Positions 13,226 to 35,146 of a DNA stretch of 61,811 nucleotides are shown piece by piece. The number at the start of each line of letters is the position of its first letter. Within the stretch, counting starts at the first letter, position 1. The stretch is from an uncultured Candidatus Saccharibacteria bacterium (lineage in GTDB: Bacteria > Patescibacteriota > Minisyncoccia > Phycocordibacterales > UBA12088): assembly GCA_964383505.1 (NCBI GenBank), contig CAYLHB010000002.1:1-61811 (forward strand). The letters run 5' to 3'. A program made the translations under genes and the position numbers. The notes under the pieces are model-generated. The model made no database searches and was not told where the DNA came from. It saw nothing but the letters and a program-made list of their open reading frames with translations.

Positions 13226-13342
13226 CGCCTCGTCTACCCCTTAAGAGAGCTGTCTCGGTCACAGGGGTCATTTTGTGAAAGATACAAATGAGACACAAAA
13301 CACCCGTCTCGGTCACCGTCTCATTTACAAAGTAGTAGAAAA

Positions 13343-13367
13343 AAGGGGCGACTAGGTCGCCCCTTTC
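13343..13367 (-). terminator. Intrinsic terminator of the nucleotide operon
   Basis: Minus strand has GAAAGGGGCGAC-CTA-GTCGCCCCTTTTTTC overlapping the kinase-like gene stop. Confidence 0.7.
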
Positions 13368-14002
13368 AGGAACTTCGATTGCAGGATTCTCCACCCTGCT
13401 TCGATAGTATCATCGGCATCCATTGCTGAAGTATCGATAATATCGACAGCAGGAAAAAAACGACGAGTAGTCTCAAGCAATTTTCGATCATGTCTCATCA
13501 CGAACTCGGGGTCAGTGAAGGACATAAAGTCGCCAGGTGTGTTTGAACCTGGATGCTTGGCTTCTCGTTCTTGCACCCTCACCTTGCGCACATCGATACT
13601 GGCAGTGAGATAAATCACACTACCGAACCGTGGATGTGCCTCGAAGAGGGCGTCTGCAAGCTCGGGAATTATCGGAGTCTCTCGCATGAGATTGTACGAA
13701 ATCGTCCGGAGCCAGCAACTATCCTGCAAATGAACAACGCCTTCTTCGGGCGGTTTGAACAAGGTGGTGTCGTACAAATGCGAAGCCAGAAACAGCGCAC
13801 CGGTTTCCAGCATGGTGGTATGAGCACCTACTGCATACCGCTTTGCTTTTTTTCCCACAGGGTTTTCACCAAGCAGGTTATTCTTGGCACGCATAACTTT
13901 CCATCCTTGCTCGCGAAGCTTGACAGACAAACCTTCACAGAGAGTTGTTTTGCCTGCCAAATCCAGACCCTCAATGAGGATCATTCGATCTTGGTACTGC
14001 AT
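13352..14002 (-). CDS. P-loop (d)NMP kinase-like protein (thymidylate-kinase-like)
   Basis: MILIEGLDLAGKTTL resembles the Tmk P-loop IEGL(D/E)GAGKTT. 216 aa, with RBS TAGGAGGG upstream. Confidence 0.65.
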   Translation of the reverse strand: MQYQDRMILIEGLDLAGKTTLCEGLSVKLREQGWKVMRAKNNLLGENPVGKKAKRYAVGAHTTMLETGALFLASHLYDTTLFKPPEEGVVHLQDSCWLRTISYNLMRETPIIPELADALFEAHPRFGSVIYLTASIDVRKVRVQEREAKHPGSNTPGDFMSFTDPEFVMRHDRKLLETTRRFFPAVDIIDTSAMDADDTIEAGWRILQSKFLKGAT

Positions 14003-14089
14003 ATACAGTCCCTCCTATGAAGTTGAACTGTTTATGATTATACAACGATATTACCGTGTTTGCAAACAAAGAAAAATTGCTTCCATATC

Positions 14090-15451
14090 GAGTCTGTAAA
14101 ATATTTTGTGTAAATGGATTATCCACCGTACTCTAGGAGTACTATCCATTCACACCCATGAACCACACAACCACGAGCGATCAAAGCATCGCTACCCTTC
14201 TTGGCACCGACGAGTTCAAGGAAAAGGCAAAACAGCTTCGCACCCTCTCGGACGTCACCGCGTTCGCCAAGGAGCTCATAGCTCCAACACTCCAGAAGAT
14301 GCTTGAAGCGGAACTCGACGAGCACTTGGGATACAAGAAGCACGAAGTAGTCGGTCGAGGTACCGGCAACTCACGAAACGGCCACAGTCAAAAGAAGCTC
14401 AAAACCTCGTTCGGTACCGCAGAGCTTGCGGTACCCCGCGACCGCAATAGCACCTTCGAGCCGGTCGTCGTGAAGCGGTACGAGACCGTGGAGAGCGACG
14501 TTGAGGAGCGCATAATCTCGATGTACGCCAAAGGATTGACGACTCGCGACATCGCTACCCACATGCACGACATTTATGGTATCGACGTATCGAGTACCAT
14601 GATTTCAACAATCACCGACAAGGTACTCCCCCTGGTCTCCGAGTGGCAGCATCGACCCCTTGCATCTTGCTACGCACTCGTGTCCCTCGACGGTATCTAC
14701 TTCAAAGTGAGAGATAGTGGCAAGATTGTGAACCGTACCGCGTACATTGTTTTGGGCACCACCCTGGAAGGTGTGCGGGATATCCTGGGTATTTGGGTTG
14801 GGGAGAGCGAGGGTGCAAAGTTTTGGATGCACGTCCTCACCGAGATCAAGAACCGTGGAGTGGATGATATCCTGATTGCATCCATAGACGGACTCACGGG
14901 GTTCACGGACGCGATTCGTGCCGTATTCCCTGAAACTGACGTACAGCAGTGCATTGTCCACCAAGTGCGGAATACCATGAAGTATGTGCCCCACAAACAC
15001 AAGAAAGCGTTCGTGAGCGACCTTCGCTCAATCTACACCGCACCAACCGAGGGAGCTGGGCTCAATGAACTCGAACGGGTGAAGGATGCGTGGCCACAGT
15101 ACGCTGTATACCTTAAGAGCTGGGAGACCAAGTGGGGTGAGCTCTCCGCCTTCTACAAGTATCCGCCCGAAATACGGAAGATCATGTACACCACAAACGG
15201 TATCGAAAGCCTGAACCGCCAGTTCCGGAAGGTCACCAAAACGACGAGTATTTTCCCGCACGAGGAGTCACTTATGAAACTGCTCTGGCTTGCGCAGCGG
15301 GATATTACCCGACACTGGACTATGCAGGTCCGTGACTGGGGCACAATCGTGAGCGCGCTTGCGGTTTTGTATCCAGAGCGGGTGAAGCTTGATTAACGTG
15401 ACGCGCGCGTATGATTATCAACCCCGTTTACACAAAAGTACTTGCACACTC
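14090..15451 (+). mobile_element. IS256-family insertion sequence (1362 bp) with 8-bp target-site duplication
   Basis: Terminal inverted repeats GAGTCTGTAAAATATTTTGTGTAAATGG (left) and GAGTGTGCAAGTACTTTTGTGTAAACGG (right, reverse complement) match at 21/28 positions. It is flanked by TCCATATC at 14082-14089 and 15452-15459. Confidence 0.9.
14158..15396 (+). CDS. IS256-family (mutator-type) transposase
   Basis: 412 aa. LDEHLGYKKHE, GNSRNGHSQKKLKTSFG..L.VPRDRNSTFEP and C-terminal NGIESLNRQFRKVTK are typical of IS256 transposases. Confidence 0.9.
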   Translation: MNHTTTSDQSIATLLGTDEFKEKAKQLRTLSDVTAFAKELIAPTLQKMLEAELDEHLGYKKHEVVGRGTGNSRNGHSQKKLKTSFGTAELAVPRDRNSTFEPVVVKRYETVESDVEERIISMYAKGLTTRDIATHMHDIYGIDVSSTMISTITDKVLPLVSEWQHRPLASCYALVSLDGIYFKVRDSGKIVNRTAYIVLGTTLEGVRDILGIWVGESEGAKFWMHVLTEIKNRGVDDILIASIDGLTGFTDAIRAVFPETDVQQCIVHQVRNTMKYVPHKHKKAFVSDLRSIYTAPTEGAGLNELERVKDAWPQYAVYLKSWETKWGELSAFYKYPPEIRKIMYTTNGIESLNRQFRKVTKTTSIFPHEESLMKLLWLAQRDITRHWTMQVRDWGTIVSALAVLYPERVKLD

Positions 15452-16074
15452 TCCATATCCCCTATCCCATTTAGCCTGAGTTGTTCAGATGAGACGACTA
15501 GGTTGAAAGAAAATTCTTTTAATGCCGCTTCAGGTTTAATTTCGAGATACGAATCGTCTATCCACCATTTCACTTTAGGGAGCCTGAATCGATCAAGAGC
15601 GTCTGCGGCTCTTAAATATTTAGACAATGGCCTCGTATCCTTTAAGATCAGAAGTATCTGGTTCAAAAGCGGATGTTGAGCGAAATGTTCCAAAAGCCAA
15701 GTGATTGCTCTATCCTCGTGACCTTCGTCGCCTTTGTCATCCATACGCTGTGTGTCATGAACAGAACAGGCTATTAATAGAGCTTCCCTATCTCTGTCAT
15801 TAATCAATCCTCTAGTCAGAAGGGTGGCATAAACCATTACTCTCACTGTGTGCGCAATTCCATGAATAGACGACACGATCTTAGGATTAACATACCAGTC
15901 TGGTTTCGGTGATAAATCCTGAATCAAAGAAACCTCTCCGGCAGTTAAATAATAGTTGGTATGAAGCATCCGATATTCAGGTTTATTCTCTTTAATTCTA
16001 TCAAGAGTCTCTTGATCCATATTCTGAATATCAGGTTGTAACCTTTCTTGAGCTAATGACCAGAGACTTGTCAT
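15418..16074 (-). CDS. HD-domain phosphohydrolase-like protein, native C-terminus displaced by the IS
   Basis: HGIAHTVRV ... CSVHDTQRMDD gives an H...HD pattern. The last 10 codons (SVQVLLCKRG) are read from the IS terminal repeat. Confidence 0.6.
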   Translation of the reverse strand: MTSLWSLAQERLQPDIQNMDQETLDRIKENKPEYRMLHTNYYLTAGEVSLIQDLSPKPDWYVNPKIVSSIHGIAHTVRVMVYATLLTRGLINDRDREALLIACSVHDTQRMDDKGDEGHEDRAITWLLEHFAQHPLLNQILLILKDTRPLSKYLRAADALDRFRLPKVKWWIDDSYLEIKPEAALKEFSFNLVVSSEQLRLNGIGDMESVQVLLCKRG

Positions 16075-16652
16075 AATGATTTTAATTCATACAAATCCTT
16101 ACTGTACAAGATAAGTGAACCGACTTGATGAACATATGAACCTGCACTTACCCCGAGTTTAGATCCTACATATTTTTGCAAAGCAATCCCAAAACACACA
16201 TCTACTGGCAGTAGTTTTAGTAATTCATTTGAGCGCATGTGAACCACCGTAAACAGTTTGTCACTATTAATGTAAAAATGAATGCCAACCAAACAAGGAA
16301 CTTCGCCAGAGGCTCCAAAAATATAATTATTATCCCAAAGACTTAGATATGCCTTTTTACTATTCGGGTCATTCTGTAAACACTCAATGATACTTGAAAT
16401 TTCATTCTGCTTAATGATTTGATTGTAGTGCGATGTTTCAATATTAAAAACATCATCCTTTTCAGCATGAGAAAACGCTAACCCATCATATAAAATAGGG
16501 TTTTGAAAAGACTCAGGATGCAATATCTCAAAGTGTGCTGACTCTTGAAATATATGTTTACCTTGAGGATTATTTTCGCCTTTTAAATGCTCTTGGACTT
16601 GCTTAATACATGCAAGGTAAAGCTCATCAACTGATTCTGCTTTTATATTCAT
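16071..16652 (-). CDS. Minimal thymidylate-synthase-fold protein (193 aa)
   Basis: It aligns by eye to the ThyA core: LQNDPNSKKAYLSLW (LKNDPDSRR..SAW), VPCLVGIHFY (APCHAFFQFY, catalytic Cys), and HMRSNELLKLLPVDV (YQRSCDVFLGLPFNI). It lacks the ThyA LLWFL folate helix, and GGDTHLY is replaced by VGSLILY. Confidence 0.65.
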   Translation of the reverse strand: MNIKAESVDELYLACIKQVQEHLKGENNPQGKHIFQESAHFEILHPESFQNPILYDGLAFSHAEKDDVFNIETSHYNQIIKQNEISSIIECLQNDPNSKKAYLSLWDNNYIFGASGEVPCLVGIHFYINSDKLFTVVHMRSNELLKLLPVDVCFGIALQKYVGSKLGVSAGSYVHQVGSLILYSKDLYELKSL

Positions 16653-16658
16653 ATAATC

Positions 16659-17765
16659 CTATTTTACACGCAACACAGACTGAGCATTAGGTATTAAGAG
16701 TGGTACAATTTTTACGTCAACAGTATCGCCCACATCAACAACTCCGTTTATAAACGTCGCCCTATAGACATCTACTTCGTTATTAAACATAATTCCCATC
16801 TCACCCTTTGGGATTGTATCGTACTGGAGTAAAACTACACCTTCTTTATCACTCAACATAGAATCCACACCTATTTGCTCGATACCACTACGTAAATCTG
16901 CAGGGGAGTTTTTCAACATTAATCGACCTAATATTGCGTTTGGTTTATATTTCAAATCACTTAAATAGAATCGAATTCGAGCACACATAAACAAAGTAAA
17001 GTCATCAGAATTAAAAGTAGACATTATCTGACGTTGTTCTCTCAAATTAGATATGTGAATGGTCGTATCAGTAACAAAATGTGTAGTACTGAATGAAGTT
17101 TTTAGCTTTGGGGTAACGTCGAATAAGTAATTTTTAACCGCTTTTGCATACACTTCACCTTTCACCGCATAATCTAGCGATACTTTTGAATCCTGTTTTA
17201 TATAGAGGTATTCGTTTAGGCTCTCAAAATAAACATGCTTCAGTGCTGAAAACTTTGTAAAAAAGGTAACTATCTCGTTTAGGAAAAGGTCTCGCTTAAG
17301 GTCTATGAGGCTATCAATATCAGATAATGCTTGTCTATATAAATTCAAAACTTCTGGGGTACTTTCCGTGTCAGTATAGTATTCGCTCTCAAAGATATAA
17401 TTTATCTTTCCTTGGATTAATGAATTTCTGTACTGCATTTCTGACATTTCAAAAACCAAACACTCAACCTTGTTGGTGTTTGATGATTGAGGTATTTCCA
17501 CGTCAAAAATATATTGCCCTAGGTTATGTACACGGCCATCTGAATGCACAGGAGTAACGTATACGACACCGAACAAACCGCCTCCACTGACGTTTATTCT
17601 TCCAGATTCCAAAATGGATTTTATATTCGGAGAGAAGTGTACAAATCTAAATGTATTATCAGAATTTTTCCAACTTAATTCACTATCATTAAAACCCTTA
17701 CTTTTAAGCTCATCCAATAAGTATTTATTCCAACCTTCGCGAGATGTAAGTTTGTCATAATTCAT
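16659..17765 (-). CDS. Hypothetical protein (368 aa); weak H-Y-E ADP-ribosyltransferase-like N-terminal motif pattern
   Basis: FVHFSPNIKSILESGRI ... GGGLFGVVYVTP ... YIFDVEIP resembles the H-x-(S/T) / aromatic-Y / E arrangement of DarT/Tpt1-type folds. This is motif-level only. Confidence 0.5.
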   Translation of the reverse strand: MNYDKLTSREGWNKYLLDELKSKGFNDSELSWKNSDNTFRFVHFSPNIKSILESGRINVSGGGLFGVVYVTPVHSDGRVHNLGQYIFDVEIPQSSNTNKVECLVFEMSEMQYRNSLIQGKINYIFESEYYTDTESTPEVLNLYRQALSDIDSLIDLKRDLFLNEIVTFFTKFSALKHVYFESLNEYLYIKQDSKVSLDYAVKGEVYAKAVKNYLFDVTPKLKTSFSTTHFVTDTTIHISNLREQRQIMSTFNSDDFTLFMCARIRFYLSDLKYKPNAILGRLMLKNSPADLRSGIEQIGVDSMLSDKEGVVLLQYDTIPKGEMGIMFNNEVDVYRATFINGVVDVGDTVDVKIVPLLIPNAQSVLRVK

Positions 17766-17768
17766 AAA

Positions 17769-19208
17769 CTATATTTCCTCTGTCACAATTCTCTTCCCGA
17801 ACCAGCTATTTTTTGCAGCCAATGATCTGTATATTCCTGAGAAAACAACAGCTGTACGATGATGATCCAAGAAATTTGAACGCTGGTTCTCTGGTTCAAT
17901 ATCCTTATCAATATAATCAAAAAATTCTTTAATACAGATACGTCGAGCCTCCTCCTGATGTCCACGAGAGTACCCCTCAAGTTCAAAGCTCATTAAGTCC
18001 CGCACGTTGATTATTTCTACTGGTTTCCATTCAGGAAAAAGTTTATTATTTCTAAAAATAATAATTTCTAAGTGACGCTCTCCCCCTATTTCAAAGTGAT
18101 CGCTATTTTCTTCTAAAATCTCCTTTGACTGATAAGAATTAACAAAAATTGACTGGAATGGACCCTGCTCAATTACATGCTGTTCTTGTCGTACACGACC
18201 GTTTCCTTTGTACAAATCTCTCCCTTCAGCAGTCGCCCAATCTCTTTGACCGTATCCAGTATGGGCCAAGTTAAGGGTACCAAGAGTAATAACCTGCCCA
18301 TCTCGCTTGAATGTAATGTTTCCAGCTACATCAATTTCGCCAAAAGAGCGCATCAAACTCTTATACTCATTTCCATACTTAAAGTACTTGTCAGAATCTT
18401 TAAAAAGACGTTTATGATCGTCAATACTAAGTTGAGCGATAAAATCGGCGGGTCTACTGCTCTGACCATATATTTCTACACTATCAACTGCTTTATCTCC
18501 TTTATGTGTGAGATTGGTAAATTCACACAAAACATCAACCGAGTGATACCCTGAATGAGAAAGTTTTCCATAACCAGAATTATACGGATGATAGTCCTGT
18601 TCGATGATTTCATCTGGAAATCTCCACTGACCATCACAGTGGAGTGAAGACATTAGCGTAACAGGACAGTTCGTTTTGGAAAAAATCTCTTTTATTGCAT
18701 TCCTCGCAACATCATACGCAGTATGAAATCGTCTTTGAGCTAATATTGTGAAAACTACATTTTTGCGCTTCAAGACTTGCTGATATTTATCTTCGATAAG
18801 TCTGTACTCCTCAAGATTTCGCTTCGCTATCTTGAGTGAATTAGCAATTTTTGCAGCAGTTGAAATTGGCTTATCGAGTAGGATATGCAACTCCTTATCC
18901 AATGCCCACATTGAATACTCAAAGTGAGAAAGTGGCTCGGTGGCAATTAAAACAACACCTACTCCGTGTCTCTGCACAATTTCATCAAGCAATTTTCTCC
19001 AAACCTTACTGTCTTTCTTTTGCTCATTAGATAAAAAATATAACTCTGGAGAGACATTATGATCGCCAACATATTTGGTGATCAGTTCCCTTTCCTGCTC
19101 CACGTCAACAACCGCTACCAACTGAGCTGTGTTGGACAGCTCTTTTAAGATTGGTACGTGGATTCTACGAGCATGATAGCCCAATCCAATAAGTAAAACT
19201 TTATGCAT
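17769..19208 (-). CDS. Gfo/Idh/MocA-like NAD(P)-dependent oxidoreductase with a long divergent C-terminal domain
   Basis: N-terminal Rossmann fold KVLLIGLGYHARRIHVPIL ... VVLIATEPLSHFEYSMWALDKELHILLDKPIS (an EKP-like motif read as DKP). Confidence 0.6.
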   Translation of the reverse strand: MHKVLLIGLGYHARRIHVPILKELSNTAQLVAVVDVEQERELITKYVGDHNVSPELYFLSNEQKKDSKVWRKLLDEIVQRHGVGVVLIATEPLSHFEYSMWALDKELHILLDKPISTAAKIANSLKIAKRNLEEYRLIEDKYQQVLKRKNVVFTILAQRRFHTAYDVARNAIKEIFSKTNCPVTLMSSLHCDGQWRFPDEIIEQDYHPYNSGYGKLSHSGYHSVDVLCEFTNLTHKGDKAVDSVEIYGQSSRPADFIAQLSIDDHKRLFKDSDKYFKYGNEYKSLMRSFGEIDVAGNITFKRDGQVITLGTLNLAHTGYGQRDWATAEGRDLYKGNGRVRQEQHVIEQGPFQSIFVNSYQSKEILEENSDHFEIGGERHLEIIIFRNNKLFPEWKPVEIINVRDLMSFELEGYSRGHQEEARRICIKEFFDYIDKDIEPENQRSNFLDHHRTAVVFSGIYRSLAAKNSWFGKRIVTEEI

Positions 19209-19626
19209 TTAAGTGTTTTATAATCTTACTGGCCGCTTTAACATTATCCTCCTTTTCAAGTGTCTTAAACAACATATCTTTGTCGCACCATCGCAAATCA
19301 TCATGCTCGTCCGGTGCTAGTGTTACTTCAACACCAGTTTTAACTTCAACTGCATATACAAACTCTCGAATCTTTGTCTCACCTTTCATCCATTCAAAAT
19401 CATAAAACGGGCCTTCAATTTTAATGATATTTTCTGAATCAATACTGCACTCCTCTTTAATTTCGCGAGTTATTGTGCCAATCAAACTCTCGTTATCATG
19501 AACAGTACCAGTAACTGTCTGCCAAAAACCGCCATCGTCAGGAACTCTCTTGATACAAAGAAACTCAACACCTGCATCCGTCAATTGATATACAAAGGCA
19601 TTTACTCGAATAGGTAACTTGGTCAT
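19201..19626 (-). CDS. Nudix hydrolase, NudB-like
   Basis: Nudix box GTVHDNESLIGTITREIKEECSI. GFWQTVTG matches NudB DFWQSVTG. The stop overlaps the downstream start by 8 nt. Confidence 0.8.
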   Translation of the reverse strand: MTKLPIRVNAFVYQLTDAGVEFLCIKRVPDDGGFWQTVTGTVHDNESLIGTITREIKEECSIDSENIIKIEGPFYDFEWMKGETKIREFVYAVEVKTGVEVTLAPDEHDDLRWCDKDMLFKTLEKEDNVKAASKIIKHLNA

Positions 19627-19730
19627 GACTAGAGAATTAAACGTATAAGTATGGCTACTTTAGCATATTTTACAGTTAAATAAAGCTGTGGTTTATTGTT
19701 TTCTGATATTTCTCGTGCATAATTGCATTA

Positions 19731-20177
19731 ATGCAATACCTTACGTGGGAAGATTTAAACAGCAGTCAGAAGTCACTTCTTGAGACTGCCAAAGCCAATG
19801 CTGAAAAATCAGTAAGCCAAAATGGTCACAAGGTGGGCTGTTCGATCTGTGGCGAGAACGAGACATACAACGGATCAACAATATCTCATCCTAGAATTAT
19901 TGGTTCAACATGTGCTGAACGCATGGCTATCGATCACCTTCTTATCGATAATGATAAGCCAAAACTGTGCGCAGTCGTAGGTAAGCTTAATCGTGAGAAC
20001 TGGACAAAAGATAATCTTTGTACACCATGTGGACTTTGTCTTGAGATGTTTTGGGAATTACAAATGAAAACTGGCATTGATGATATAGACTTTCTTTGTG
20101 CAAATTGGGATTTAGATAGAATCCTGAGTATTAAACTTTCTAAACTATTCCCTCGCTTTGAAGCTGTGAAGCGTTAG
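19731..20177 (+). CDS. Cytidine/deoxycytidine deaminase-like protein (CDA fold)
   Basis: Zinc motifs CAERMAI and TPCGLCLEMF (C-A-E ... P-C-x-x-C). 148 aa, as in homotetrameric CDAs. Confidence 0.7.
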   Translation: MQYLTWEDLNSSQKSLLETAKANAEKSVSQNGHKVGCSICGENETYNGSTISHPRIIGSTCAERMAIDHLLIDNDKPKLCAVVGKLNRENWTKDNLCTPCGLCLEMFWELQMKTGIDDIDFLCANWDLDRILSIKLSKLFPRFEAVKR

Positions 20178-20203: not shown

Positions 20204-21535
20204 CTACATACGATTCTTCTTACGTTCCCGAGTAGCCTTCACCTTCTCTCGATGTAAACGTCGAGCCTCGTCCTTCTCCTTTCGCTCCGCTTCACGCTGT
20301 GCCATTTCTTCGGGCGGTATCACTCGAAGATAATCCATGATCTTGTATCCCTTGAGGATTTCGTGCGGATCGCCGAAGTGATACCACGGGTGCATCTGGT
20401 TCCACTCCTTACCGTCTTTCATCTCCTTAACCATATGCGACTCAAGAAGTTTCTTTGGAGGCAGAAAGTCCTTGTTGTCCTTGATTAGAAACAACTGGGC
20501 ATGCACACCCTCGCCATAGTGCGAGACTGTTCGTGCCTTTAGGATACCTTCCTTCACCCACTTATTGAGTGTCTGACCTTTCACATTGAAGTAGTGCTCA
20601 AAGTCATACTTTCGATACCAACTATCTTTGTTCTTGGCGAGTGATGCGGAAATCTCACCTTTATCAATCGCTTTCTGACAAACCAGACACTTCACGCCCC
20701 ATTTGTCGTACCAGTTATCACCCTCTGGCGTACTGCCGTGACAGATGGCACACGTATACCCAGCGCCCTCACGATGGAATCCTTTTGGTTCTTTTTCGAG
20801 TCGTTCAACAAGTAGCTTTTCCTTTTCCTTCCATTCATCCATAAACCTACCTGCTTGCTCCATACCCCATTTCATCTCTGAAAACTTGCGACCCTCCTCT
20901 TCGGAGAGACAGTATCGACCACGATCTTCGGCAAAGTGTTCGTCGTATTCATCCTCGTGCTTTGGCCAAACCATCTCATCTCTTTCTATATACTTACACT
21001 TCGCACAGGTGTATGTAGTAACAAGTTTTGTACCATCGTCATCGGCAGTATGTTTGGTTGGTGAGTCACATTGTTTACAGACGTGCTGTTTGATCCGCCA
21101 CTCTTCACCCGTATTGAAAAATGCCCGACGAGGCAGGCATTTGTTTGGACAGTCATACATGAAGAGAACACGTTCTGGTTTGTCTCCGTCGTGCCAGAGT
21201 TGCTTGAAAGTTGGAGTGTGGCGATTGCGACAGGTAAGGCATCGGATGTCTTCGGGAGCTTGAGCATTTTCGTAGAGATCATCAAGCGTCTGGTCGCTCG
21301 CCATCCATTCCTGGATTGTTTTATCCCGATTCAGATAGCGTTCACCCCTTTCGAAGGTAAGTATGAGATTATGCGCCCACTCTCTGATGGCTCGGTCTTG
21401 CTCCTTGCTCATCTTCTTATTACGAGATGGTGAATCATCTTTGACATACCGTTTTTCCATACCACGACAACGCTCAACTGTATATTTGTCGTACAGGTCG
21501 ATATAGTATTGACGGTCTTTAAGATGTTTGCTCAC
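20204..21535 (-). CDS. Multi-zinc-ribbon protein with a possible C-terminal HTH (443 aa)
   Basis: Repeated CxxC pairs (CLTCRN, CKQCDS, CAKCKY, CAICHG, CLVCQK). The segment KGQTLNKWVKEGILKA resembles an excisionase/MerR-type HTH. It has a Lys/Arg/Glu-rich tail. Confidence 0.55.
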   Translation of the reverse strand: MSKHLKDRQYYIDLYDKYTVERCRGMEKRYVKDDSPSRNKKMSKEQDRAIREWAHNLILTFERGERYLNRDKTIQEWMASDQTLDDLYENAQAPEDIRCLTCRNRHTPTFKQLWHDGDKPERVLFMYDCPNKCLPRRAFFNTGEEWRIKQHVCKQCDSPTKHTADDDGTKLVTTYTCAKCKYIERDEMVWPKHEDEYDEHFAEDRGRYCLSEEEGRKFSEMKWGMEQAGRFMDEWKEKEKLLVERLEKEPKGFHREGAGYTCAICHGSTPEGDNWYDKWGVKCLVCQKAIDKGEISASLAKNKDSWYRKYDFEHYFNVKGQTLNKWVKEGILKARTVSHYGEGVHAQLFLIKDNKDFLPPKKLLESHMVKEMKDGKEWNQMHPWYHFGDPHEILKGYKIMDYLRVIPPEEMAQREAERKEKDEARRLHREKVKATRERKKNRM

Positions 21536-21584
21536 CCCTATATTCTATTCCTATTTTAAGTGATTTTTAAATAGCATTTTGTGT

Positions 21585-22472
21585 TTAATCTTTGATCCAA
21601 ATGGGTACGACAGCATTACCCAGCACAATACCGTGAATGAGTGCATCTCTGTTATCAAAGGAATTAGTACCGACGTAACTCAACAAGAAAGCCTTCATGA
21701 GTGCTTCAACACGATGATAAAAAGTGAATTCTTCGGTACGGGTACTGAACACCTTGCATTCCCAAACCTTCCCATGCATCACCCAGTTACGAACATCCTT
21801 TATGTCTGTGAGAAAAGAATCTATTGGCTTAGTGTTAGTGTATTGTGCTTCAAAACCGAACTTTTGAACCGCGTACTTTAAGTAGTCGATATAGTGCAGA
21901 TTCCCCGGAACATTCTTGGGGTTCTTTATGTTGCTATCTAAACAATAAAGACTTCGGCAAAACAGCTCTATTGGCTGAAGATACCAAACATCTTTCAAAT
22001 CGCTATATGGTGTAAAAAGCTCCGCTTCGAACAATAGACCGAGACTTTTAAAAAAGATGCGACGTTCGTTATTAGAAAAACTATCCAGTTTTTTAATCGT
22101 GCTGTCTAAATATGCCTCAACTTCCTTTACGCGTAGAAGAGGCCAATCATATGTCTTTCCGCCGATCCGAGCAAACACCTCACTACCTCCTTCCTTATCG
22201 TCGTATGGAAAGATGTGTCGAGACTGAAAAAGTGCAAGCAAGGCACAGTAATCCCATATCTTCGGCTGCGATGGATAAAAATGTGACTTAGTGAGATCAA
22301 GTCCCGGTTTTTCACATACTATTGTTGAACGAAAATTTACGTTTCTTGAAAATCTGTTTTCCTTTTCATATTCCTTGTATCCATTTTCAAAGTCCACAAC
22401 GGGTTCAAATCGATAATGTGTTGTATCGATAACATTTGGGAGGTGGACGTTGTAGAGATAGAGTTGTCTCAT
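21585..22472 (-). CDS. HEPN-motif protein (Abi-like), 295 aa
   Basis: ATG at 22472 (MRQLYLY). The C-terminal DIKDVRNWVMHG carries an R-N-x3-H (Rx4H) HEPN signature. The upstream part of the 358-aa ORF overlaps the preceding gene. Confidence 0.55.
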   Translation of the reverse strand: MRQLYLYNVHLPNVIDTTHYRFEPVVDFENGYKEYEKENRFSRNVNFRSTIVCEKPGLDLTKSHFYPSQPKIWDYCALLALFQSRHIFPYDDKEGGSEVFARIGGKTYDWPLLRVKEVEAYLDSTIKKLDSFSNNERRIFFKSLGLLFEAELFTPYSDLKDVWYLQPIELFCRSLYCLDSNIKNPKNVPGNLHYIDYLKYAVQKFGFEAQYTNTKPIDSFLTDIKDVRNWVMHGKVWECKVFSTRTEEFTFYHRVEALMKAFLLSYVGTNSFDNRDALIHGIVLGNAVVPIWIKD

Positions 22473-22494
22473 AATCTTCAATATACAAACAGCC

Positions 22495-23322
22495 TTAAGA
22501 AGTGCTATTGGTCGATTCAGATTCGAGTCTAAATAGATGGTTGAGTAACAAAAACTCAGATAGGTACTCCTGTGAATCACTTTGACGCTCTTTATGTGCA
22601 CGCGGATTTCGATACGCGGAATATGCATTGATAATAATGTTTGCCCTTGCCTTCTGCTCACCTTCGCTAATTCCGTTCCAGCTTAACCTTGAGTTTTGTT
22701 TGAGAAATGCTTCGGTGAATAATTTCGCTCCAATCTCGTAGCTACCAGTCCTTAGTCGGACAGCATCTTCAAATCTCCTATATCCATCCATAAGGTTGGT
22801 GTCAGGGTGCTGCCAAAATGAAACAGCAAGATCAATAATCCGTGGATCGATAATCGCATACGGAATAACTGGCCGAAATTCCTTCCACAAATCTCCTACT
22901 CGAGCCGCATCAAAATGTTGCGTTTCAATGTATTCGTATATGCGAAGCGGCCTTACTGGATTAAGCGCCTTTATCTCTTGAACATCAGCAGTTGTTAATG
23001 CCGAATGATCAAGTCGCTCTAGCATAGAATTATTTATTTCAAACTCGTCAATGTTGATACCGTGCTCCATTAGCAAGGCAAGCGCGTACGAAAATTTGCG
23101 TGGACCCTCGCCGGTGTAGCCGCTCGCAAAACCTGATTTAACTGCAATAAGTTCTATCGGTTCTACGGTGATAAGTAGCCCGTGCCTTCCTCTAGATGTA
23201 AGGATATGTACTTTGGATAGCTGATCGTTGTACTGCAATAGACGTACTACAGCATCAAGACATGTTTGTGTTATGCCTGCCTCACCCCAATATTGAATTC
23301 TTGCTAGTTTGGCATCACGCAT
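22495..23322 (-). CDS. TIGR02391 (Ymh-type HEPN) family protein with an unknown N-terminal domain
   Basis: The C-terminus GAKLFTEAF...EGEQKARANIIINAYSAYRNPRAHKE...EYLSEFLLLNHLFRL matches my recollection of the TIGR02391 pattern, with an RNPRAH Rx4H motif. Confidence 0.65.
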   Translation of the reverse strand: MRDAKLARIQYWGEAGITQTCLDAVVRLLQYNDQLSKVHILTSRGRHGLLITVEPIELIAVKSGFASGYTGEGPRKFSYALALLMEHGINIDEFEINNSMLERLDHSALTTADVQEIKALNPVRPLRIYEYIETQHFDAARVGDLWKEFRPVIPYAIIDPRIIDLAVSFWQHPDTNLMDGYRRFEDAVRLRTGSYEIGAKLFTEAFLKQNSRLSWNGISEGEQKARANIIINAYSAYRNPRAHKERQSDSQEYLSEFLLLNHLFRLESESTNSTS

Positions 23323-23329: not shown

Positions 23330-26300
23330 TTACACAGGCAAGTACTCCCAGTACACCCGCACCGTCTCTTGGTATATCGAGTCTATCAGCCGTTCAGTTT
23401 GTACAAGCTCAGTGAAACCCTTCTGAAGCAAGAGCAGACGTACGTTCTGACGAATCCGCGCTTTGATCGTCTCGTTGTTTGTCCAATCAATCGCTAAGTC
23501 ACGACGAATACGCCTCGTCAGTTCTTTAACAAAATCCTTAATATCGATACCTGCTTTTTTGAGATCCGGGTCAGTCACTAGGGTGTCATAAAAGACCACC
23601 TCCTCTTCAGAAAGCCCTAGCTCCCTACTCTCCTCGTCGAGCTTCTGTATATCATCGGCAATAGCAAGCAGGTGCTTGATGATCTCTGCGGAACTGATAA
23701 CGTTGTTCTCGTACTTCTCGATAAGGTCGGTTAGGAGGGTGAGCATGGTTTCGTATCGAGCTTTGTTGGTACGAGAGCGAACCTTAATCTCTTTGTCGAG
23801 CATCTTCCGCACCGTATCAATAGCAAGATTTTGATACTTCGATTTATTGATCTCCTCAGCAAACCGCGCGTCAAATATCGAGATGATCTTTTTCTCCTCG
23901 CCTTCTTTGGTAAAGAGGTCAATCACGCCCTCGGCCTGCACCGCATCTTGCACTAAGCTTCGGATAGCACTCTCGGTCGCTTCAGGAAAGATGATATGGG
24001 GAATCACCGTCTGCTTGTGTAAGGCATCGCGAATAGACTGGAAAAACTGCACATCCGTCGCAATCTCCATCGCTTCAGAGCCTGGCATCACAAGCGCGTG
24101 AAGGTTGGAAAGCTTTGACACCGCACCCATGTACGCCATTTTACGATCATCCGACAGATGGCCTTGCTCCGAGACAACCTCATTCATTGCGGATTGGAAC
24201 AACTCTACCAGCTCGATCCCCTTTTTCTGCCTCCACCCGGAAAAGTCGATAGCGGCAAAATACTGCAACACGTCCCCGTGAAGTTTCTTCATTGCGCGTA
24301 TCACCTCATCAAGCGGTATCATCGCCTCTTTCTGCACATCCGCATCATAGATTGCAAGTGCCTTCTTGAGATTTTCCGCAACACCTATGTAGTCCACAAT
24401 CAAACCGCCCGGCTTATCTTTGTAGATACGATTGACCCGTGCGATCGCTTGCATGAGTCCATGATTCTTGAGTGGCTTATCGAGGTACATGGTATGCAAA
24501 CACGGCACATCAAACCCGGTGAGCCACATATCGCACACGATGGCGATGCGCAAAGGGTCGCTCGCTTTCTTGAAGCGCTTTTCAAGCTTCTTCACGTCAT
24601 GTTCTGGCTGCAACTGCCCCGCAAAATCATCCATGCCGGATATGATCACCGCGCATTCGGGTGCCCCAGGTATCTTCTGTATCGCTTGGTATACCGCGAC
24701 GGCAATAGCGCGGCTCATGGTCACCACCATCGCCTTTCCTTCTATGGGTCGATTGGTAAAGTGGGAGACTATATCTTTTGATATTGTTTCGATACGATCC
24801 GGTGTACCCACCATCTGTTCGAGTACCGCCCATTCTTTTTGTACCTTTATTCGCTCATCGATAACGATCTCACCCAATATCTCATCGAGCTTGCTATCAA
24901 CAAACTGGTCTGCAAGGTGAAGTGGAATAAGTCGCCCCTCGTAGTAGATAGGCACGGTTGCATTATCCTTGACCGCTTGGCCTATCTTGTATGAACTCAC
25001 CACATCGCCAAACACGCGCATGGTATCACGACTATGCTGTGATATTGGTGTTCCGGTCACCCCCAAAAAGCTCGCATTCGGCAAGGCCTGACGTACGTTA
25101 CCCGCAAGCATGCTGTATTGGGTACGATGTGCTTCGTCCGTAAGGACAATGATGTTTTCCCGATCGGTAAGGGCCGCGTTCGCATCTGGATCGTCTTGGA
25201 ATTTCTGAATGGTGGTGAAGATAAGTTCGGATCCCAGGTGTGAGAGTCGGTCTTTCAAGTCTCTAATGCTTGAAGCGCGCTTCGCGAGCGTGCCGTATCC
25301 CGTACGACTAAATGTTTTGAATAGTTGATCGTCGAGATCTTCGCGGTCAGTGAGGAACACATACGCCGGACTTTTAAGTTCATGGATCCGCTTCGTCTTG
25401 TTCACGTAGAACACCATCGATAATGATTTGCCCGACCCCTGCGTATGCCAAAAAACGCCAATCTTCCGCTCTTGTTCACCTAGGACCGATCGTACGGTAC
25501 TGTCGATGGTCTTATTCACCCCATAGTACTGGTGGTACAACGCCATTTTCTTGGTGTAGGTCACCGCATCACCGTCGCCGTCTGCCTCAAACACGGTGAA
25601 GTTTTGTATCACATCAAGCAAACGGGCTTTATTGAAAAGACCATTTGCGAGCACTTCGAGCTCTGTCGCGCTCTTTGGCGCATCACTCTCCGACTCGATC
25701 CCCTTCCAGGTACCATACCGCTCCCACGAGGAGGATATGGTGCCATGACGGGCATCGGTAAGGTCACTGAGGCAAACAACCTGGTTGTACAGAAAAAGCT
25801 TTGGAATTTCCTTTTTGTAGTACTCCATGTCACGGTACGCCTGCCCGATGGTCGCCTGCTCACGCACGGGGTTTTTGAGTTCAAATACCGCAAGCGGAAT
25901 ACCATTCACAAATACCACACCATCAAGACGGCAAACATTCTCGATACCTTGGACTGTAAATTGATTGACGATCAAGAACTCATTCGCATCTACATTTGTG
26001 AAATCAATCAACTTCACAACTTCGGTCTTTTCCTCACCATTCTCTCGCCACGTCTTCTTCACTCCCTCGGTAAGGAAAGTAAATATTTCCTTATTGCCGA
26101 GGACAATATCGGCATTGTGGTAGCTCGCGATATCAGCAACCACTTGTTCTGCCTGTTCAGCAGGAAGCTGAGGATTAAATCGATGAACGGAAGTGAGGAG
26201 GCGATTCTTTAAGACCACCTCATTAAAAAGCGCCCGCTCCGCACTGGGTTGTTTTGGGGCAATGTCTGGTCCGTAGGCATACTCATAGCCCTCGCCTTGA

Positions 26301-26353
26301 AGCCATTCTATGAGCGACTGCTCAGTTAAATTGTTTTCGTTGAGAGGATTCAT
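23330..26353 (-). CDS. hsdR: Type I restriction enzyme R subunit
   Basis: 1007 aa with helicase motifs (HTQGSGKS, TDEAHRTQY, GVTGTP). The start overlaps the hsdM-S stop by 4 nt. Confidence 0.9.
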   Translation of the reverse strand: MNPLNENNLTEQSLIEWLQGEGYEYAYGPDIAPKQPSAERALFNEVVLKNRLLTSVHRFNPQLPAEQAEQVVADIASYHNADIVLGNKEIFTFLTEGVKKTWRENGEEKTEVVKLIDFTNVDANEFLIVNQFTVQGIENVCRLDGVVFVNGIPLAVFELKNPVREQATIGQAYRDMEYYKKEIPKLFLYNQVVCLSDLTDARHGTISSSWERYGTWKGIESESDAPKSATELEVLANGLFNKARLLDVIQNFTVFEADGDGDAVTYTKKMALYHQYYGVNKTIDSTVRSVLGEQERKIGVFWHTQGSGKSLSMVFYVNKTKRIHELKSPAYVFLTDREDLDDQLFKTFSRTGYGTLAKRASSIRDLKDRLSHLGSELIFTTIQKFQDDPDANAALTDRENIIVLTDEAHRTQYSMLAGNVRQALPNASFLGVTGTPISQHSRDTMRVFGDVVSSYKIGQAVKDNATVPIYYEGRLIPLHLADQFVDSKLDEILGEIVIDERIKVQKEWAVLEQMVGTPDRIETISKDIVSHFTNRPIEGKAMVVTMSRAIAVAVYQAIQKIPGAPECAVIISGMDDFAGQLQPEHDVKKLEKRFKKASDPLRIAIVCDMWLTGFDVPCLHTMYLDKPLKNHGLMQAIARVNRIYKDKPGGLIVDYIGVAENLKKALAIYDADVQKEAMIPLDEVIRAMKKLHGDVLQYFAAIDFSGWRQKKGIELVELFQSAMNEVVSEQGHLSDDRKMAYMGAVSKLSNLHALVMPGSEAMEIATDVQFFQSIRDALHKQTVIPHIIFPEATESAIRSLVQDAVQAEGVIDLFTKEGEEKKIISIFDARFAEEINKSKYQNLAIDTVRKMLDKEIKVRSRTNKARYETMLTLLTDLIEKYENNVISSAEIIKHLLAIADDIQKLDEESRELGLSEEEVVFYDTLVTDPDLKKAGIDIKDFVKELTRRIRRDLAIDWTNNETIKARIRQNVRLLLLQKGFTELVQTERLIDSIYQETVRVYWEYLPV

Positions 26354-28854
26354 GTGATTTTTTCCGAGGATTTGCGAGCCTCCAAAAGATTCCCGTATTC
26401 CTGTTGAGTAGCGAGAATAAACTCAAAGATTGGTTGAACCAATTCGTCAAACTCCTCGATTAGTGAGGCGGGAGGATTAACAACCTGAATATTCTTAAGT
26501 GTCGCCGTTGTAATGGCGTCAAAAACTCCACCTACAGCAATCTTCTGCAGACTCTCTATTAATCTTTGGACAAGAAGGTACACATAGAAGCTGGAAATCC
26601 CGTCTTTTCCCTTGAGAGCGTAGCATGATTGGTTCATTGCCATGGGTACACCCGCAAGTGCAAGTTTTCCTACTGTGCCACGTGCAGTGAGAAAAACAGT
26701 ATTCTTCGGATATAGTGAGCTGTTGCAGTTCTCTAAGCCTTCCTGTGTTATATATTTCTCAGTTTTTAAAGAATAGAATGAACCGTTTGCATCGCCGGGT
26801 GTAAAAAATGGAATAGCGCCATTCCAATATTCGTTAACGTCTGTTTTTGGGGTACCCCCACCGAGAACATCCACATTATCGGTCAGAGCACCCTTAGACC
26901 AACCTTCTGGAATTTGACCCATTCCACTGTCGACAAGTTTGATATTCGAATTAGATGGATAATTGAATTTTACAAACCACTCAGCAAAAATTCGCTTGCA
27001 CAAATCTTCTAATATTTCGCGTGAAGAGAAGTCCAGGTCACTCCAATCGTGATGAGGATAGAATTTACTTAGTTTTGAAGAAATTTCTCTGTTAAGAGCT
27101 TGGTTGGTCTTCGTTTGCTTTTTTAGAAAACGAGAAGTTATTGCGAGATTTTCATCAAACGACACCTTTTCATTCTCAGACTCCACGAGGCCCACATACA
27201 GTCCGGGGTTGAGATAATATTTGTTACTCCTAATTTGCTCAAGATTTACAGACTTACAAAAACCAGGAATGTCGTTATATTTTTCAGCATCTGACTCGCC
27301 ACGCCAAGCACGAACAACGTTTGCTATTTGCTTAATATGATCCGGGTTTAAGACAACCTGTTTTCGAGAAATCTGCTCAAATATGTTCCTTGCGTCGACG
27401 AAGAGTGTCTCACCTGGGCGTTTCCGAAAACGATCTCCAGATTTATTTTTTGCCAGAAACCAAAGGGAGACTGGCAAAGGTACATTGTAAAAAAGTTTAG
27501 GGGGACAAGAAATAATAACGTCCACCAAATCCGCTTCAACTAATTTTTGGCGAAGTTCACCCTCCTTGCCTGCAACAGCTGTTGCACCATTGGGCATAAC
27601 GAACCCAGCATACCCATTTGGTGCGAGATGGTGAGTAAAATGCTGTACCCACATAAAGTTTGCGTTACTACTTTGTGGCACGCCAAGAGTGATACGAGGA
27701 TCGCTATCTGACAGTTTGGATGGATCCCACTCTGCATTGAAAGGAGGATTAGCGATAACGAAATCAGCTTGCAGATGAGGGAACTTATCTTCGTAGTAGG
27801 TATTGCCAAGCTCAATCTTTCCAGAGAGTCCGCGAATCGCAAGGTTCATCTTTGCGAGTCGAAGAGTGGTCTGATTACTCTCCTGACCATTTATAGCCAG
27901 TTTGGAAGAATCTTGCCCATGATTGCGAAGATACTCACCCATGGATACAAACATTCCTCCACTTCCACAGGCAGGGTCTAATACGCGGGCGTTTTCGTAA
28001 GGTTCAAGAATTTCAACAAGAAGCTTGACGATTGACCGAGGGGTAAAAAATTCACCTCCACGCTTTCCTTCGGAAGAAGCAAACTGGCCGAGGAAGTATT
28101 CATAAATACGACCAAGAATGTCTTTCTCCCGGTCGAAATCATGGTCGAACGAAATACGGGAGAAAATGTTTACAAGCTCACCAATCACCGCATGGTCAAG
28201 AGTCGTGCGTGTATATATCTTTGGCAGAACGCCCTCCAGCTCTGCGTGGTTGTCGTCCTCGATATACTCCATAGCTTTGTCGAGCACTTGTCCAATGTCC
28301 GACTGCATCGTCTTGGTCTGTAAGTACTCCCAACGTGACTTTGCAGGGACATAGAACACGCCTACGCTTTTATAGAAATCCTTAGTCTCAAGTATCTGTG
28401 CACGTGCTTTGTCGTCAGCTACGTAAAAATCCTCATTATTTGGATTACGCGTGAACGTTTCGAGCTCTTCACGCCGCTTAACGAACGCATCAGAAATGTA
28501 CTTCAAAAATAGAAGCCCAAGCACTATATTTTTATACTCCGACACGTCAATATTGCCCCTAAGCTTGTCGGCTGCCGCCCATAGCTCCTTTTCAAAACTT
28601 AGGTCGTGGTGCACGCCTTTCCCTACCACGCTTTCTCGTATTTTGCCTTTCTCTTTCTCAATGCGCCCTTGCAACTCCGCGGATAAGGAGGACTTTGGTA
28701 TAAGGTAGGTGGGTTTTGAGGGATCGCCGACATTTTCAGCCTCAATCTCACCTTTTTTGATCTTCTGGTGTACTGCGACACGAGATATCCCCAGCATCTT
28801 GGCAAGCTGGGTGGGCGTTATGAATTCTGTTTTGTTTATTGGCATGATTGCCAT
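26350..28854 (-). CDS. hsdM: Fusion: N-terminal HTH + type I N6-adenine methyltransferase (HsdM) + single-TRD half HsdS
   Basis: HTH ITPTQLAKMLGISRVAVHQKIKKGEI. HsdM N-domain LWAAADKLRGN. Motif I LDPACGSGGMF and motif IV NPPFN. The C-terminal ~250 aa look like one HsdS target-recognition domain plus a conserved helix (LGGGTPKT...FFTPGD...ARGTVGK...NQSCYAL). Confidence 0.8.
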   Translation of the reverse strand: MAIMPINKTEFITPTQLAKMLGISRVAVHQKIKKGEIEAENVGDPSKPTYLIPKSSLSAELQGRIEKEKGKIRESVVGKGVHHDLSFEKELWAAADKLRGNIDVSEYKNIVLGLLFLKYISDAFVKRREELETFTRNPNNEDFYVADDKARAQILETKDFYKSVGVFYVPAKSRWEYLQTKTMQSDIGQVLDKAMEYIEDDNHAELEGVLPKIYTRTTLDHAVIGELVNIFSRISFDHDFDREKDILGRIYEYFLGQFASSEGKRGGEFFTPRSIVKLLVEILEPYENARVLDPACGSGGMFVSMGEYLRNHGQDSSKLAINGQESNQTTLRLAKMNLAIRGLSGKIELGNTYYEDKFPHLQADFVIANPPFNAEWDPSKLSDSDPRITLGVPQSSNANFMWVQHFTHHLAPNGYAGFVMPNGATAVAGKEGELRQKLVEADLVDVIISCPPKLFYNVPLPVSLWFLAKNKSGDRFRKRPGETLFVDARNIFEQISRKQVVLNPDHIKQIANVVRAWRGESDAEKYNDIPGFCKSVNLEQIRSNKYYLNPGLYVGLVESENEKVSFDENLAITSRFLKKQTKTNQALNREISSKLSKFYPHHDWSDLDFSSREILEDLCKRIFAEWFVKFNYPSNSNIKLVDSGMGQIPEGWSKGALTDNVDVLGGGTPKTDVNEYWNGAIPFFTPGDANGSFYSLKTEKYITQEGLENCNSSLYPKNTVFLTARGTVGKLALAGVPMAMNQSCYALKGKDGISSFYVYLLVQRLIESLQKIAVGGVFDAITTATLKNIQVVNPPASLIEEFDELVQPIFEFILATQQEYGNLLEARKSSEKIT

Positions 28855-29105
28855 CCTAGCACAATGTGTTGCTAAATGCAACTTAACATGTGTAAAGTTG
28901 CGTGGCACCCTGTGTCCTGTATACTACAAGAGGTTCCAACGCAAAACGACGACCCTCTCGCAAAAAAGGAAGTCGTCGCTATGCGGTAGCCTCTGCAGTC
29001 GGGGTGAACGTTGGTGCGTTCTGACTGCCGAGTACAAAGGGTCTGTACCCCTGTTCCTACAGCCTACACACCCCACTGCACATTACAAGCACCAGCATCT
29101 AATAA

Positions 29106-29502: not shown

Positions 29503-30609
29503 TTACTGCTCCAACGTATGCCTGACCCAGGTACAGATGTCGAAGAACTTTTGCTGTGCGTCAGGATTCGCGAGTGCGGCAAGTGGTAGCCTGAGTGCGC
29601 TGTAGCCGTCGACGTTTGACGTGTCGACTTCGGCACCCTCGATCGTTCGTAACTGCTCAAGGATCTCTACGCGCTTTTCTGGTAGGTCAAACGGTGCTGG
29701 ACTCAAGTTACCCTGATGCGGTGCATTCCACCCCAGCTTACCGTCGCCCGATACGACAAACGGAACAAACTTCTTTCCTTCCCTGTTGTAGAAGCGTGGG
29801 AAGAAACCACCGCGTTGGCTTGTGGCCCAAGAAACCTCCATATTGTTGTTTTGTGTCCACTCAAGCATGGCTTGTGCCGCTTTGACCTCTGCATCCCCAT
29901 AGCTCTGTAAATGCGCTTTGAACAGCTCCCAATTCCACACCTTACCCTGTGCGCTCTTTACGGTGCCAATCTCTTTCTTCACTTCTGCACCGAAGATCTT
30001 GGGGATGATGATTTCGTACGTGTCGTGAGTGTAGTATTCGAGTTCAACGGCATAGATATCAAACTGACTGTTTTGGTTCACGTAGAGAATGAGATCTTTG
30101 AGTCGGTCATCAAGCTTGTCCATGAGAACCACGAAGTGAAACACCCCGTCGTCGAGGTTTGAACGCATACGATCGAGTATCACGCTGACCTCATCGTCAG
30201 TGAGGTTGAAAAAGTCTTGCGCTTTTGCAGCTGCACGCATACCAAACACCTTTTGCGTATGCTGGTCGAGGATTGAGAGAAACTCATTGAAATCACCCGA
30301 ATGCTTCCAGAGTGCAGCACCGTAGTCGAGTGCTTGCGCAATAACGGTACGCTTGTCGGTGTTCTTGTAGAGTTTTGTTTCAACAATATAGATACTGCCA
30401 TACTGGTCGATACCGAGTGCATCGATAGGGCCGCTGTTGGTAGAAAACTCACGAGCGAGGATAAGTAGTCGTATATCCTCCTTGATATCGTAGAGTGGGA
30501 TGCTCTCCGGATTCTGATATATGTACTCTTGGAGATAGTTCTCCTTTTCGATGGTAGACTTCTCTACCCGAACGGCTTTGTTGCCGTCCTTGGAAATGAT
30601 TATAGACAT
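29503..30609 (-). CDS. PD-(D/E)xK nuclease-like protein (NucS/DUF91-like N-terminal domain)
   Basis: ENYLQEYIYQNPESIPL...IDALGIDQYGSIYIVETKLYKN gives a D...E-x-K motif. The 200-aa C-terminal region is unknown. Confidence 0.55.
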   Translation of the reverse strand: MSIIISKDGNKAVRVEKSTIEKENYLQEYIYQNPESIPLYDIKEDIRLLILAREFSTNSGPIDALGIDQYGSIYIVETKLYKNTDKRTVIAQALDYGAALWKHSGDFNEFLSILDQHTQKVFGMRAAAKAQDFFNLTDDEVSVILDRMRSNLDDGVFHFVVLMDKLDDRLKDLILYVNQNSQFDIYAVELEYYTHDTYEIIIPKIFGAEVKKEIGTVKSAQGKVWNWELFKAHLQSYGDAEVKAAQAMLEWTQNNNMEVSWATSQRGGFFPRFYNREGKKFVPFVVSGDGKLGWNAPHQGNLSPAPFDLPEKRVEILEQLRTIEGAEVDTSNVDGYSALRLPLAALANPDAQQKFFDICTWVRHTLEQ

Positions 30610-35077: not shown

Positions 35078-35146
35078 CGGTTACCAACTTAAGGAGGTTC
35101 GGGCACACTAGACTGTTGGGGCGTGTTGCGTCATTCATTGTGGTGT

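Follow-up and report, generated by a model that had tools for sequence, protein, structure and literature searches.

The 61,811-nucleotide (nt) contig CAYLHB010000002.1 (GenBank assembly GCA_964383505.1), assigned to an uncultured Candidatus Saccharibacteria bacterium and referred to here in its full length as the window, carries on its minus strand an array of co-oriented genes in which a type I restriction-modification (R-M) system is followed by three further genes: A (275 amino acids, aa), B (295 aa), and the zinc-ribbon gene C (443 aa). We consider it likely that this region is one filling of a defense hot spot in a phage-derived integrative element of Parcubacteria/Paceibacterota (Candidate Phyla Radiation, CPR), and that its cargo is modular. 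The frame of such an element would consist of a serine integrase, a LOOT RNA, TerL and TerS, one or two ParB-type methylases, C, and a terminal conserved sequence of approximately 165 nt, which we call X. Two slots, one from the methylase to C and the other from C to X, would hold co-oriented defense genes that differ from genome to genome. In the window, the first slot would contain four independent modules, namely a NucS-like nuclease, the type I R-M system, A, and B, whereas C would be a core gene of the element and not a defense effector of the array.

The layout of the array had been described in an earlier sequence-only reading of the window, and a check of the open reading frames (ORFs) reproduced it: five co-oriented minus-strand genes in the order hsdMS, hsdR, A, B, and C, with a 4-nt overlap between hsdMS and hsdR and gaps of 7 nt (hsdR to A), 22 nt (A to B), and 49 nt (B to C).

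26350-28908, minus strand: hsdM-hsdS fusion (hsdMS); Pfam, PADLOC
23330-26353, minus strand: hsdR, type I restriction subunit; TIGR00348, PADLOC, Pfam
22495-23322, minus strand: A, 275 aa, solo Ymh-type HEPN protein; PF09509, homologue alignment, structure model
21585-22472, minus strand: B, 295 aa, rare family, putative HEPN protein, distantly Apea-like; motifs, family hits, model
20204-21535, minus strand: C, 443 aa, cysteine-rich with a basic C-terminal tail, GTG start; homologues, gene maps

The numbers of homologues recovered for A, B, and C (more than 571, 15, and more than 315, respectively) support all three as real genes. For B, the homologue alignment favors the 295-aa ORF starting with ATG over a 358-aa ORF starting with GTG, while the GTG start of C was accepted because residues 5–20 are conserved among its homologues. 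A scan across the array returned promoter- and terminator-like sites in numbers equal to the shuffled expectation, with one weak promoter-like site in the B–C gap. The G+C content at third codon positions (GC3) is 0.37 for A, 0.40 for B, 0.43 for hsdMS, 0.57 for hsdR, and 0.50 for C, compared to 0.63–0.72 for core genes. This mosaic composition inside the array fits independent acquisition of the cargo.

Conserved frame and variable cargo

The frame emerged from gene maps of 80 metagenomic loci containing a C homologue, complemented by further look-ups; related loci are designated by L numbers. Read in the orientation of C, it consists of an integrase, the LOOT RNA, a small gene, TerL, TerS, and one or two methylases (opposite strand), followed by the array and C. 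The methylase/TerL/integrase module accompanies C in 30 of 37 distinct loci for which 8 kb or more of upstream sequence is available. The loci with the longest arrays are among the seven that lack it, and most of these arrays extend past the end of the retrieved DNA. In the window, the frame, the first gene of the array, the second slot, and a nearby tRNA gene are located as follows:

31007-36541, plus strand: ParB-methylase, second methylase, TerS, TerL, and large serine integrase, divergent from the array; Pfam, PHROGs
30662-30783, minus strand: LOOT RNA (Rfam RF03000), heading the array on the same strand as the cargo and C; 75 bits versus a gathering threshold of 46
29503-30609, minus strand: NucS-like/PDC-S11-like nuclease, 368 aa, first gene of the co-oriented array; PADLOC PDC-S11, E 4.5e-17
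13352-20177, no strand assigned: second variable slot, from C to X; Pfam, GC3
13165-13330, minus strand: X, conserved non-coding sequence of approximately 165 nt, normally found after C or after post-C cargo; alignment
38181-38252, minus strand: tRNA-Gln, approximately 1.6 kb from the module

The module is phage-derived, as judged by matches to PHROG families: TerL to phrog_38 (E 9e-82), TerS to TerS families, the methylase to phrog_498, and the integrase to phrog_95. Its genes are 34–73% identical to the syntenic genes of L015. Pfam searches found no capsid or portal genes in it, and it looks like a satellite-type or remnant element and not a full prophage.

Between the module and C, the co-oriented array ranges from 0 to 10 genes. 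Components of cyclic oligonucleotide-based antiphage signaling systems (CBASS) occur among the 139 cargo proteins (SMODS five times, SAVED three times, and Patatin twice), and the cargo of the C loci further includes Gabija GajA (four times), Old/AriA-like proteins, DUF2779 (three times), AAA_13, nSTAND3, Mrr_cat with a zinc ribbon (four times), and type I and type II R-M genes. A is itself found repeatedly as cargo of the element (L132, L015, L176, and L178/L179). The exchange of cargo is illustrated by the close relative L001, where a NucS-like gene, hsdM-hsdS-hsdR, and genes for proteins of 821 and 181 aa precede B and C, and where the type I genes are 31–41% identical to those of the window. 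L001 keeps the NucS-like gene, B, and C but has a different type I system and different accessories, which again fits independent acquisition. In L006, the gene preceding B and C encodes a DUF2779 protein. Conserved flanks and variable, defense-enriched cargo, as expected of a mobile-element defense hot spot, are thus both present. The commonest single Pfam family in the cargo is Peptidase_S24 (LexA/CI-like; 7 of the 139 proteins), whose members may be repressors of the element rather than defense genes.

The LOOT RNA was also detected in seven of nine related loci scanned (L109, L111, L114, L117, L119, L121, and L125) with scores of 70–90 bits. It always lies beside the integrase/terminase module, and it heads the defense array in the window and a short co-oriented gene elsewhere. 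This may be the first genomic context for the orphan LOOT RNA motif.

At the other end of the frame, X was found on the strand of C in 21 loci by nhmmer and in 42 with an iterated model. It begins at the stop codon of C in L011 (X at 9318-9485), L098, and L100, and one or two genes later elsewhere; its start lies 0–1.8 kb from the C stop codon in other loci and approximately 6.9 kb from it in the window. In L178 (X at 7170-7330) and L179, it directly follows A. The genes beyond X differ between loci. X holds an inverted repeat, TGAGACA...TGTCTCA, together with the repeated GACCGAGAC. A search of Rfam gave chance-level hits only and no family, and the single hairpin that RNAalifold predicts as conserved shows little covariation. 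X may therefore be a DNA site and not an RNA. It could be an att, pac, or operator site, or an RNA.

The second slot of the window contains genes for a Tmk-like kinase, a Mutator-family transposase, and a dCMP-deaminase-like protein, as well as a low-GC cluster (GC3 0.27–0.37) encoding an HD protein, a truncated ThyA-like protein (193 aa), a 368-aa protein, a GFO/IDH/MocA-like protein, and a NUDIX protein. This block could be a nucleotide-modification or nucleotide-depletion module.

Protein C as a core gene of the frame

The more than 315 homologues of C share 54–85% identity with it and, where their source is named, come from Nomurabacteria, Paceibacterota, or Parcubacteria. At least five CxxC ribbons had been noted in C from its sequence; the homologue alignment bears out five CxxC pairs and adds one Cx3C pair, all of them invariant. 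These six pairs would suffice for three Cys4 sites and belong to a set of 14 invariant cysteines. C has no match in Pfam, NCBIfam, PADLOC, PHROG, or the PDB, and a helix-turn-helix-like segment proposed along with the ribbons finds no profile support in Pfam, PADLOC, NCBIfam, or the PDB. A subfamily of shorter C-like proteins of approximately 361–368 aa (L178 4374-5459; L174, L175, and L170) aligns to the N-terminal half of C alone (approximately residues 4–247), with 38–45% identity.

We place C in the element because the C-like gene of L178 follows TerL co-linearly, and because C and X travel together into different downstream neighborhoods. The alternative that C is a host core gene beside the integration site was judged less likely. 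C is a conserved core gene that marks the 3' edge of the variable defense slot and is not an hsd accessory, and its role is probably DNA-binding or regulatory.

A further proposal, to which we give slightly less than an even chance, is that C, the LOOT RNA, ParB-methylase/TerS/TerL, the serine integrase, and X make up an undescribed family of compact CPR elements that are capsid-less and satellite-like and have two defense slots. In such elements, C would bind DNA as a regulator or serve in maintenance of the element, with X as a possible target. A literature search found no paper describing this CPR element.

Protein A and its association with type I genes

A ends in a Ymh-type HEPN domain, as its YRNPRAH motif had suggested. 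Residues 181–265 match Pfam PF09509 (Hypoth_Ymh) with 42.1 bits (cut-off 25; E 9.5e-11), and NCBIfam TIGR02391 is matched with 33.9 bits, which lies under its stricter cut-off of 39.45. The more than 571 full-length homologues, of approximately 275–290 aa, are distributed over bacteria and archaea, and most of them bear a precomputed PF09509 match. R238, N239, and H243 of the motif are invariant in 30 of 30 aligned homologues (R-N-x3-H), as is an N-terminal motif, K62-x-G-F-x2-G-Y-x-G-E-G, across 30 homologues. In the structure model (pLDDT, the predicted local distance difference test score, 88), an alpha/beta N-terminal domain (approximately residues 1–120) is followed by the helical HEPN domain. 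The N-terminal domain has no Pfam family, no PDB sequence match, and no significant PDB fold match; a fold search gave weak matches alone, to small ribosomal proteins and the FtsH N-domain. No recognizable family was found in Pfam for the N-terminal region of B either, and the earlier statement that both HEPN proteins carry novel N-terminal regions therefore stands.

The genomic contexts of A were compared in 80 loci from GTDB species representatives, which span more than 10 phyla including archaea. The neighbors are heterogeneous: among 112 immediate neighbors, housekeeping enzymes included, no Pfam family is represented more than three times. Such heterogeneous contexts without a recurrent partner point to A as a self-contained module, also where it stands in a type I operon. 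A is best described as a candidate stand-alone HEPN defense gene and, judging by its sequence, as a probable RNase.

The closest homologues of A are 59–63% identical to it. In L176, A is the first gene divergent from the ParB-methylase, while the order in L178/L179 is methylase, TerS, TerL, C-like gene (361 aa), HEPN_Cthe2314, A, and X. The HEPN_Cthe2314 genes of these two loci (L178 5459-6238 and L179 2164-2943) encode proteins of 259 aa and lie 12–21 nt upstream of the closest A homologues, making this the second case, in this element family, of two different HEPN genes being adjacent.

The 7-nt gap between hsdR and A in the window brings to mind a mechanism like that of PrrC, in which A, and perhaps B, would be a latent RNase masked by the type I complex and freed by a phage anti-restriction factor. 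Homologues of A do lie close to hsd genes elsewhere. In L049 and L069, a gap of 23 nt separates hsdR from the A homologue downstream of it; in L077, the homologue follows hsdM at a distance of 45 nt; in L041, it lies two genes upstream of hsdM; and the order in L177 is hsdM, SduA_C, hsdS, hsdR, YgjP-like, and A. A survey from 2013 moreover lists Ymh as being 'in operon with R-M' and proposes the PrrC analogy (PMC3710099). However, of 75 species-representative loci, just three have A directly 3' of hsdR or hsdM, to which one close relative can be added, and 6–7 contain type I genes within 10 kb of A. More than 90% of the A-family loci are thus without a type I gene at that distance, and no neighbor recurs. 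The closest relatives of A also occur in settings other than R-M, namely after the methylase in L176 and after the C-like and HEPN_Cthe2314 genes in L178/L179, and B adjoins hsdR only via A or other genes. A also lacks the ABC-ATPase domain that mediates the regulation of PrrC; indeed, Pfam, NCBIfam, and PADLOC reveal no ATPase domain of any kind in A, and its model shows only a small alpha/beta domain at the N-terminus. Coupling of this kind is therefore unlikely, and in the form given to it by the sequence-only reading, it finds no support, given the missing ABC-ATPase and the low frequency of type I genes near A. What does hold of the expected recurrence beside type I R-M genes is that A-like genes recur directly next to hsd, although in a minority of loci and never as the trio of A, B, and C or the pair of A and B.

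The notion of the trio as one system, which had been made dependent on conserved synteny, fares no better. The synteny is not conserved, A and B occur together in no other locus examined, and C sits after many unrelated defense systems.

Protein B, a divergent HEPN candidate

In contrast to the widespread A, B has 15 homologues in a search of 5.8 billion clusters, and its family profile retrieves 11 representative clusters among 1.84 billion proteins, all of approximately 300 aa. PADLOC yields no match at E ≤ 0.1, its ApeA model included, and PDB sequence searches with the profiles of A, B, and C yield nothing meaningful. In the extended family, 9 of 22 members match HEPN_Apea (best E 2.3e-5), which is the sole recurrent family. 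Across these 22 members, down to 20% identity, R228 and H233 of the VRNWVMH motif never vary and N229 hardly does. HEPN domains typically also show an Ex3[KR] motif (as defined in PMC3710099), which is represented here by E169, which is invariant, and R173, which is present in most members, replaced by K in one, and different in distant ones. The structure model (pLDDT 83; predicted template modeling score, pTM, 0.86) combines a small alpha/beta N-terminal domain with an all-helical C-terminal domain, and neither the model nor Pfam, NCBIfam, or PADLOC reveals an ATPase domain. HEPN toxins (8xdj, 7bxo, 8xeh, 5yep, 2q00, and Csm6) head its PDB fold matches. With moderate confidence, B appears to be a divergent HEPN protein, related to the Apea-like family, to which it does not belong by threshold.

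B directly precedes C in the window, L001–3, and L006–7, where the B proteins are at least 68% identical and the upstream cargo differs. The more distant homologues in L004, L008, and L010 (45–52% identity) are found without C, A, or an adjacent hsdR, and the neighbors of B are not homologous between loci. A conserved partner was sought in the 821-aa neighbor in L001 and the 810-aa neighbor in L004, which are not homologous to each other; the other neighbors share no family.

These contexts bear on two further explanations. The constant position of B immediately upstream of C, despite differing upstream cargo, could mean that the two work together, C serving, for instance, as a regulator or antitoxin of B. 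The three lineages in question are closely related, however (C 82% identical), so the adjacency may be inherited; approximately 60 other distinct C loci lack B, the B homologues of L004, L008, and L010 lack C, and hundreds of C homologues face 15 of B. We regard this as the least probable explanation of those considered. A system of two HEPN proteins, in which A together with B or any second HEPN protein would form a heteromeric RNase or a toxin–regulator pair, is also very unlikely. It would account for the HEPN_Cthe2314 genes just before the A relatives in L178/L179 and for the B homologue in L008, which lies three genes from an AbiU2-like HEPN gene, but the second HEPN differs in family and side each time, L178 and L179 are close relatives and so represent one lineage, the other B loci contain no A homologue, and no HEPN family recurs among the 112 neighbors of A. 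Furthermore, profile–profile comparison detects no similarity between A and B, which suggests two unrelated HEPN lineages and not paralogues.

Evaluation of the hot spot model and proposed function of A and B

Several observations weigh against the reading of the region as a defense hot spot with modular cargo. A adjoins hsdR or hsdM in unrelated lineages (L049, L069, L077, and L177), far above what random placement would give. The 7- and 22-nt gaps, without a predicted terminator, suggest co-transcription of hsdR, A, and B, and with it possible functional cross-talk. C and B have no matches in IMG/VR viral contigs, and neither C nor A has a match among isolated phage genomes; A also has no PHROG family and one weak plasmid match. 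Neither att sites nor excised forms were seen, and the mobility of the element is suggested by its gene content (integrase, TerS, and TerL). Genes in related loci were called by a simple longest-ORF caller. The HEPN assignment of B, put forward earlier from its VRNWVMH motif, is upheld by the invariant R and H and by E169-x3-R173, but is weaker than that of A: B itself matches HEPN_Apea (PF18739) with E 0.047 and 14.5 bits, below the Pfam cut-off of 24.4, its fold matches are weak (E 0.4–3), and the call comes from sub-threshold and transitive hits. Finally, an RNase function of A and B is predicted from the Rx4H motif and family membership.

On balance, we still favor the hot spot, and propose the following model for A and B. 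Each would be a self-contained, metal-independent RNase, as the Rx4H motif and family membership suggest, and its own N-terminal domain would keep the HEPN site off until a cue from infection arrives. Once activated, A or B would cleave RNA and stop growth, resulting in abortive infection, and would thereby serve as a back-up layer to DNA restriction.

Type I restriction-modification genes and the NucS-like nuclease

The genes upstream of A constitute a type I R-M system in which the functions of HsdR, HsdM, and HsdS are all present, M and S being contained in one ORF. The hsdMS product contains, in order, HTH_17, HsdM_N, N6_Mtase (E 1.5e-96), and one Methylase_S target-recognition domain, corresponding to a single Methylase_S stretch in Pfam and to MTase_I plus Specificity_I in PADLOC; translation probably starts a few codons into the ORF. 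The fusion of HsdM to a half HsdS with a single target-recognition domain suggests a symmetric recognition site. In the relative in L002, HTH_17 is not fused and forms a 67-aa gene of its own upstream of hsdM. HsdR matches TIGR00348 with 595 bits (cut-off 285) and PADLOC REase_I with E 1.5e-246, and comprises the Pfam domains HSDR_N, SWI2_SNF2, and T1RH-like_C. The NucS-like gene is found in 5 of the 37 C loci, and its homologues occupy the same array position in L001 (2-862) and L098 (119-1342).

Relation to known systems

The anticodon nucleases PrrC and RloC have an N-terminal ABC ATPase (Rad50/SbcC-like) fused to a HEPN domain, and obligate residence in a type I hsd locus, with masking by the R-M complex, is counted as a further hallmark. 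In the EcoprrI type Ic system, as in the window, the HEPN gene is co-oriented with and adjoins the hsd genes, which makes second-line abortive infection plausible, whereas A has no ABC-ATPase, stands after hsdR rather than between hsd genes, and is linked to hsd as a minority trait.

The resemblance to Ymh/TIGR02391 proteins is closer, since A, too, ends in a Ymh HEPN domain with R-N-x3-H, and its gene is found solo and sometimes in type I operons. Anantharaman et al. (2013; PMC3710099) described Ymh (PF09509) as 'solos and fusions... in operon with R-M', reported ApeA-type HEPN domains embedded in R-M operons, and proposed a multi-pronged defense by analogy with PrrC. The N-terminal domain of A, of approximately 120–170 residues, differs from the partners listed there, which are paraMORC, AbiJ-NTD1, and AbiTii. 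HEPN genes inside R-M operons were thus already described in 2013, and the element with C, the LOOT RNA, and X is the more novel lead.

ApeA appears in a passage of PMC10952713 among HEPN-containing defense systems, with credit to Gao et al. (2020). Like this single-gene HEPN defense, B joins a non-HEPN N-terminal part to a predicted C-terminal Apea-like HEPN domain with Rx4H in one polypeptide, and it is located in a defense island. In contrast, its N-terminal domain is mixed alpha/beta and approximately 110 aa, compared to the beta-rich ApeA-NTD1 of approximately 300 aa, and its family is tiny.

Defense hot spots flanked by conserved genes have been described in P2-like prophages and P4-like satellites (PMC13586616). 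The arrangement is similar here, with the methylase/TerS/TerL/integrase module on one side, C on the other, and exchanged defense genes between them, but the host belongs to the CPR, the flanking genes are others, TerS and TerL occur without capsid or portal genes, a LOOT RNA and X are present, and the element is known here from its genes.

Implications for defense in CPR bacteria

CPR bacteria are hard to culture, and their defenses are poorly known. A and B are two single-gene HEPN candidates, the architecture of A being widespread and the family of B extremely rare. A CPR frame that concentrates defense systems can be mined for new ones. If the frame does define the proposed family of compact CPR elements, position within it would provide a guilt-by-position handle for identifying new CPR defense genes, among them A, B, and numerous cargo proteins without annotation; the LOOT RNA would gain its first biological context, and X would gain a genomic one.

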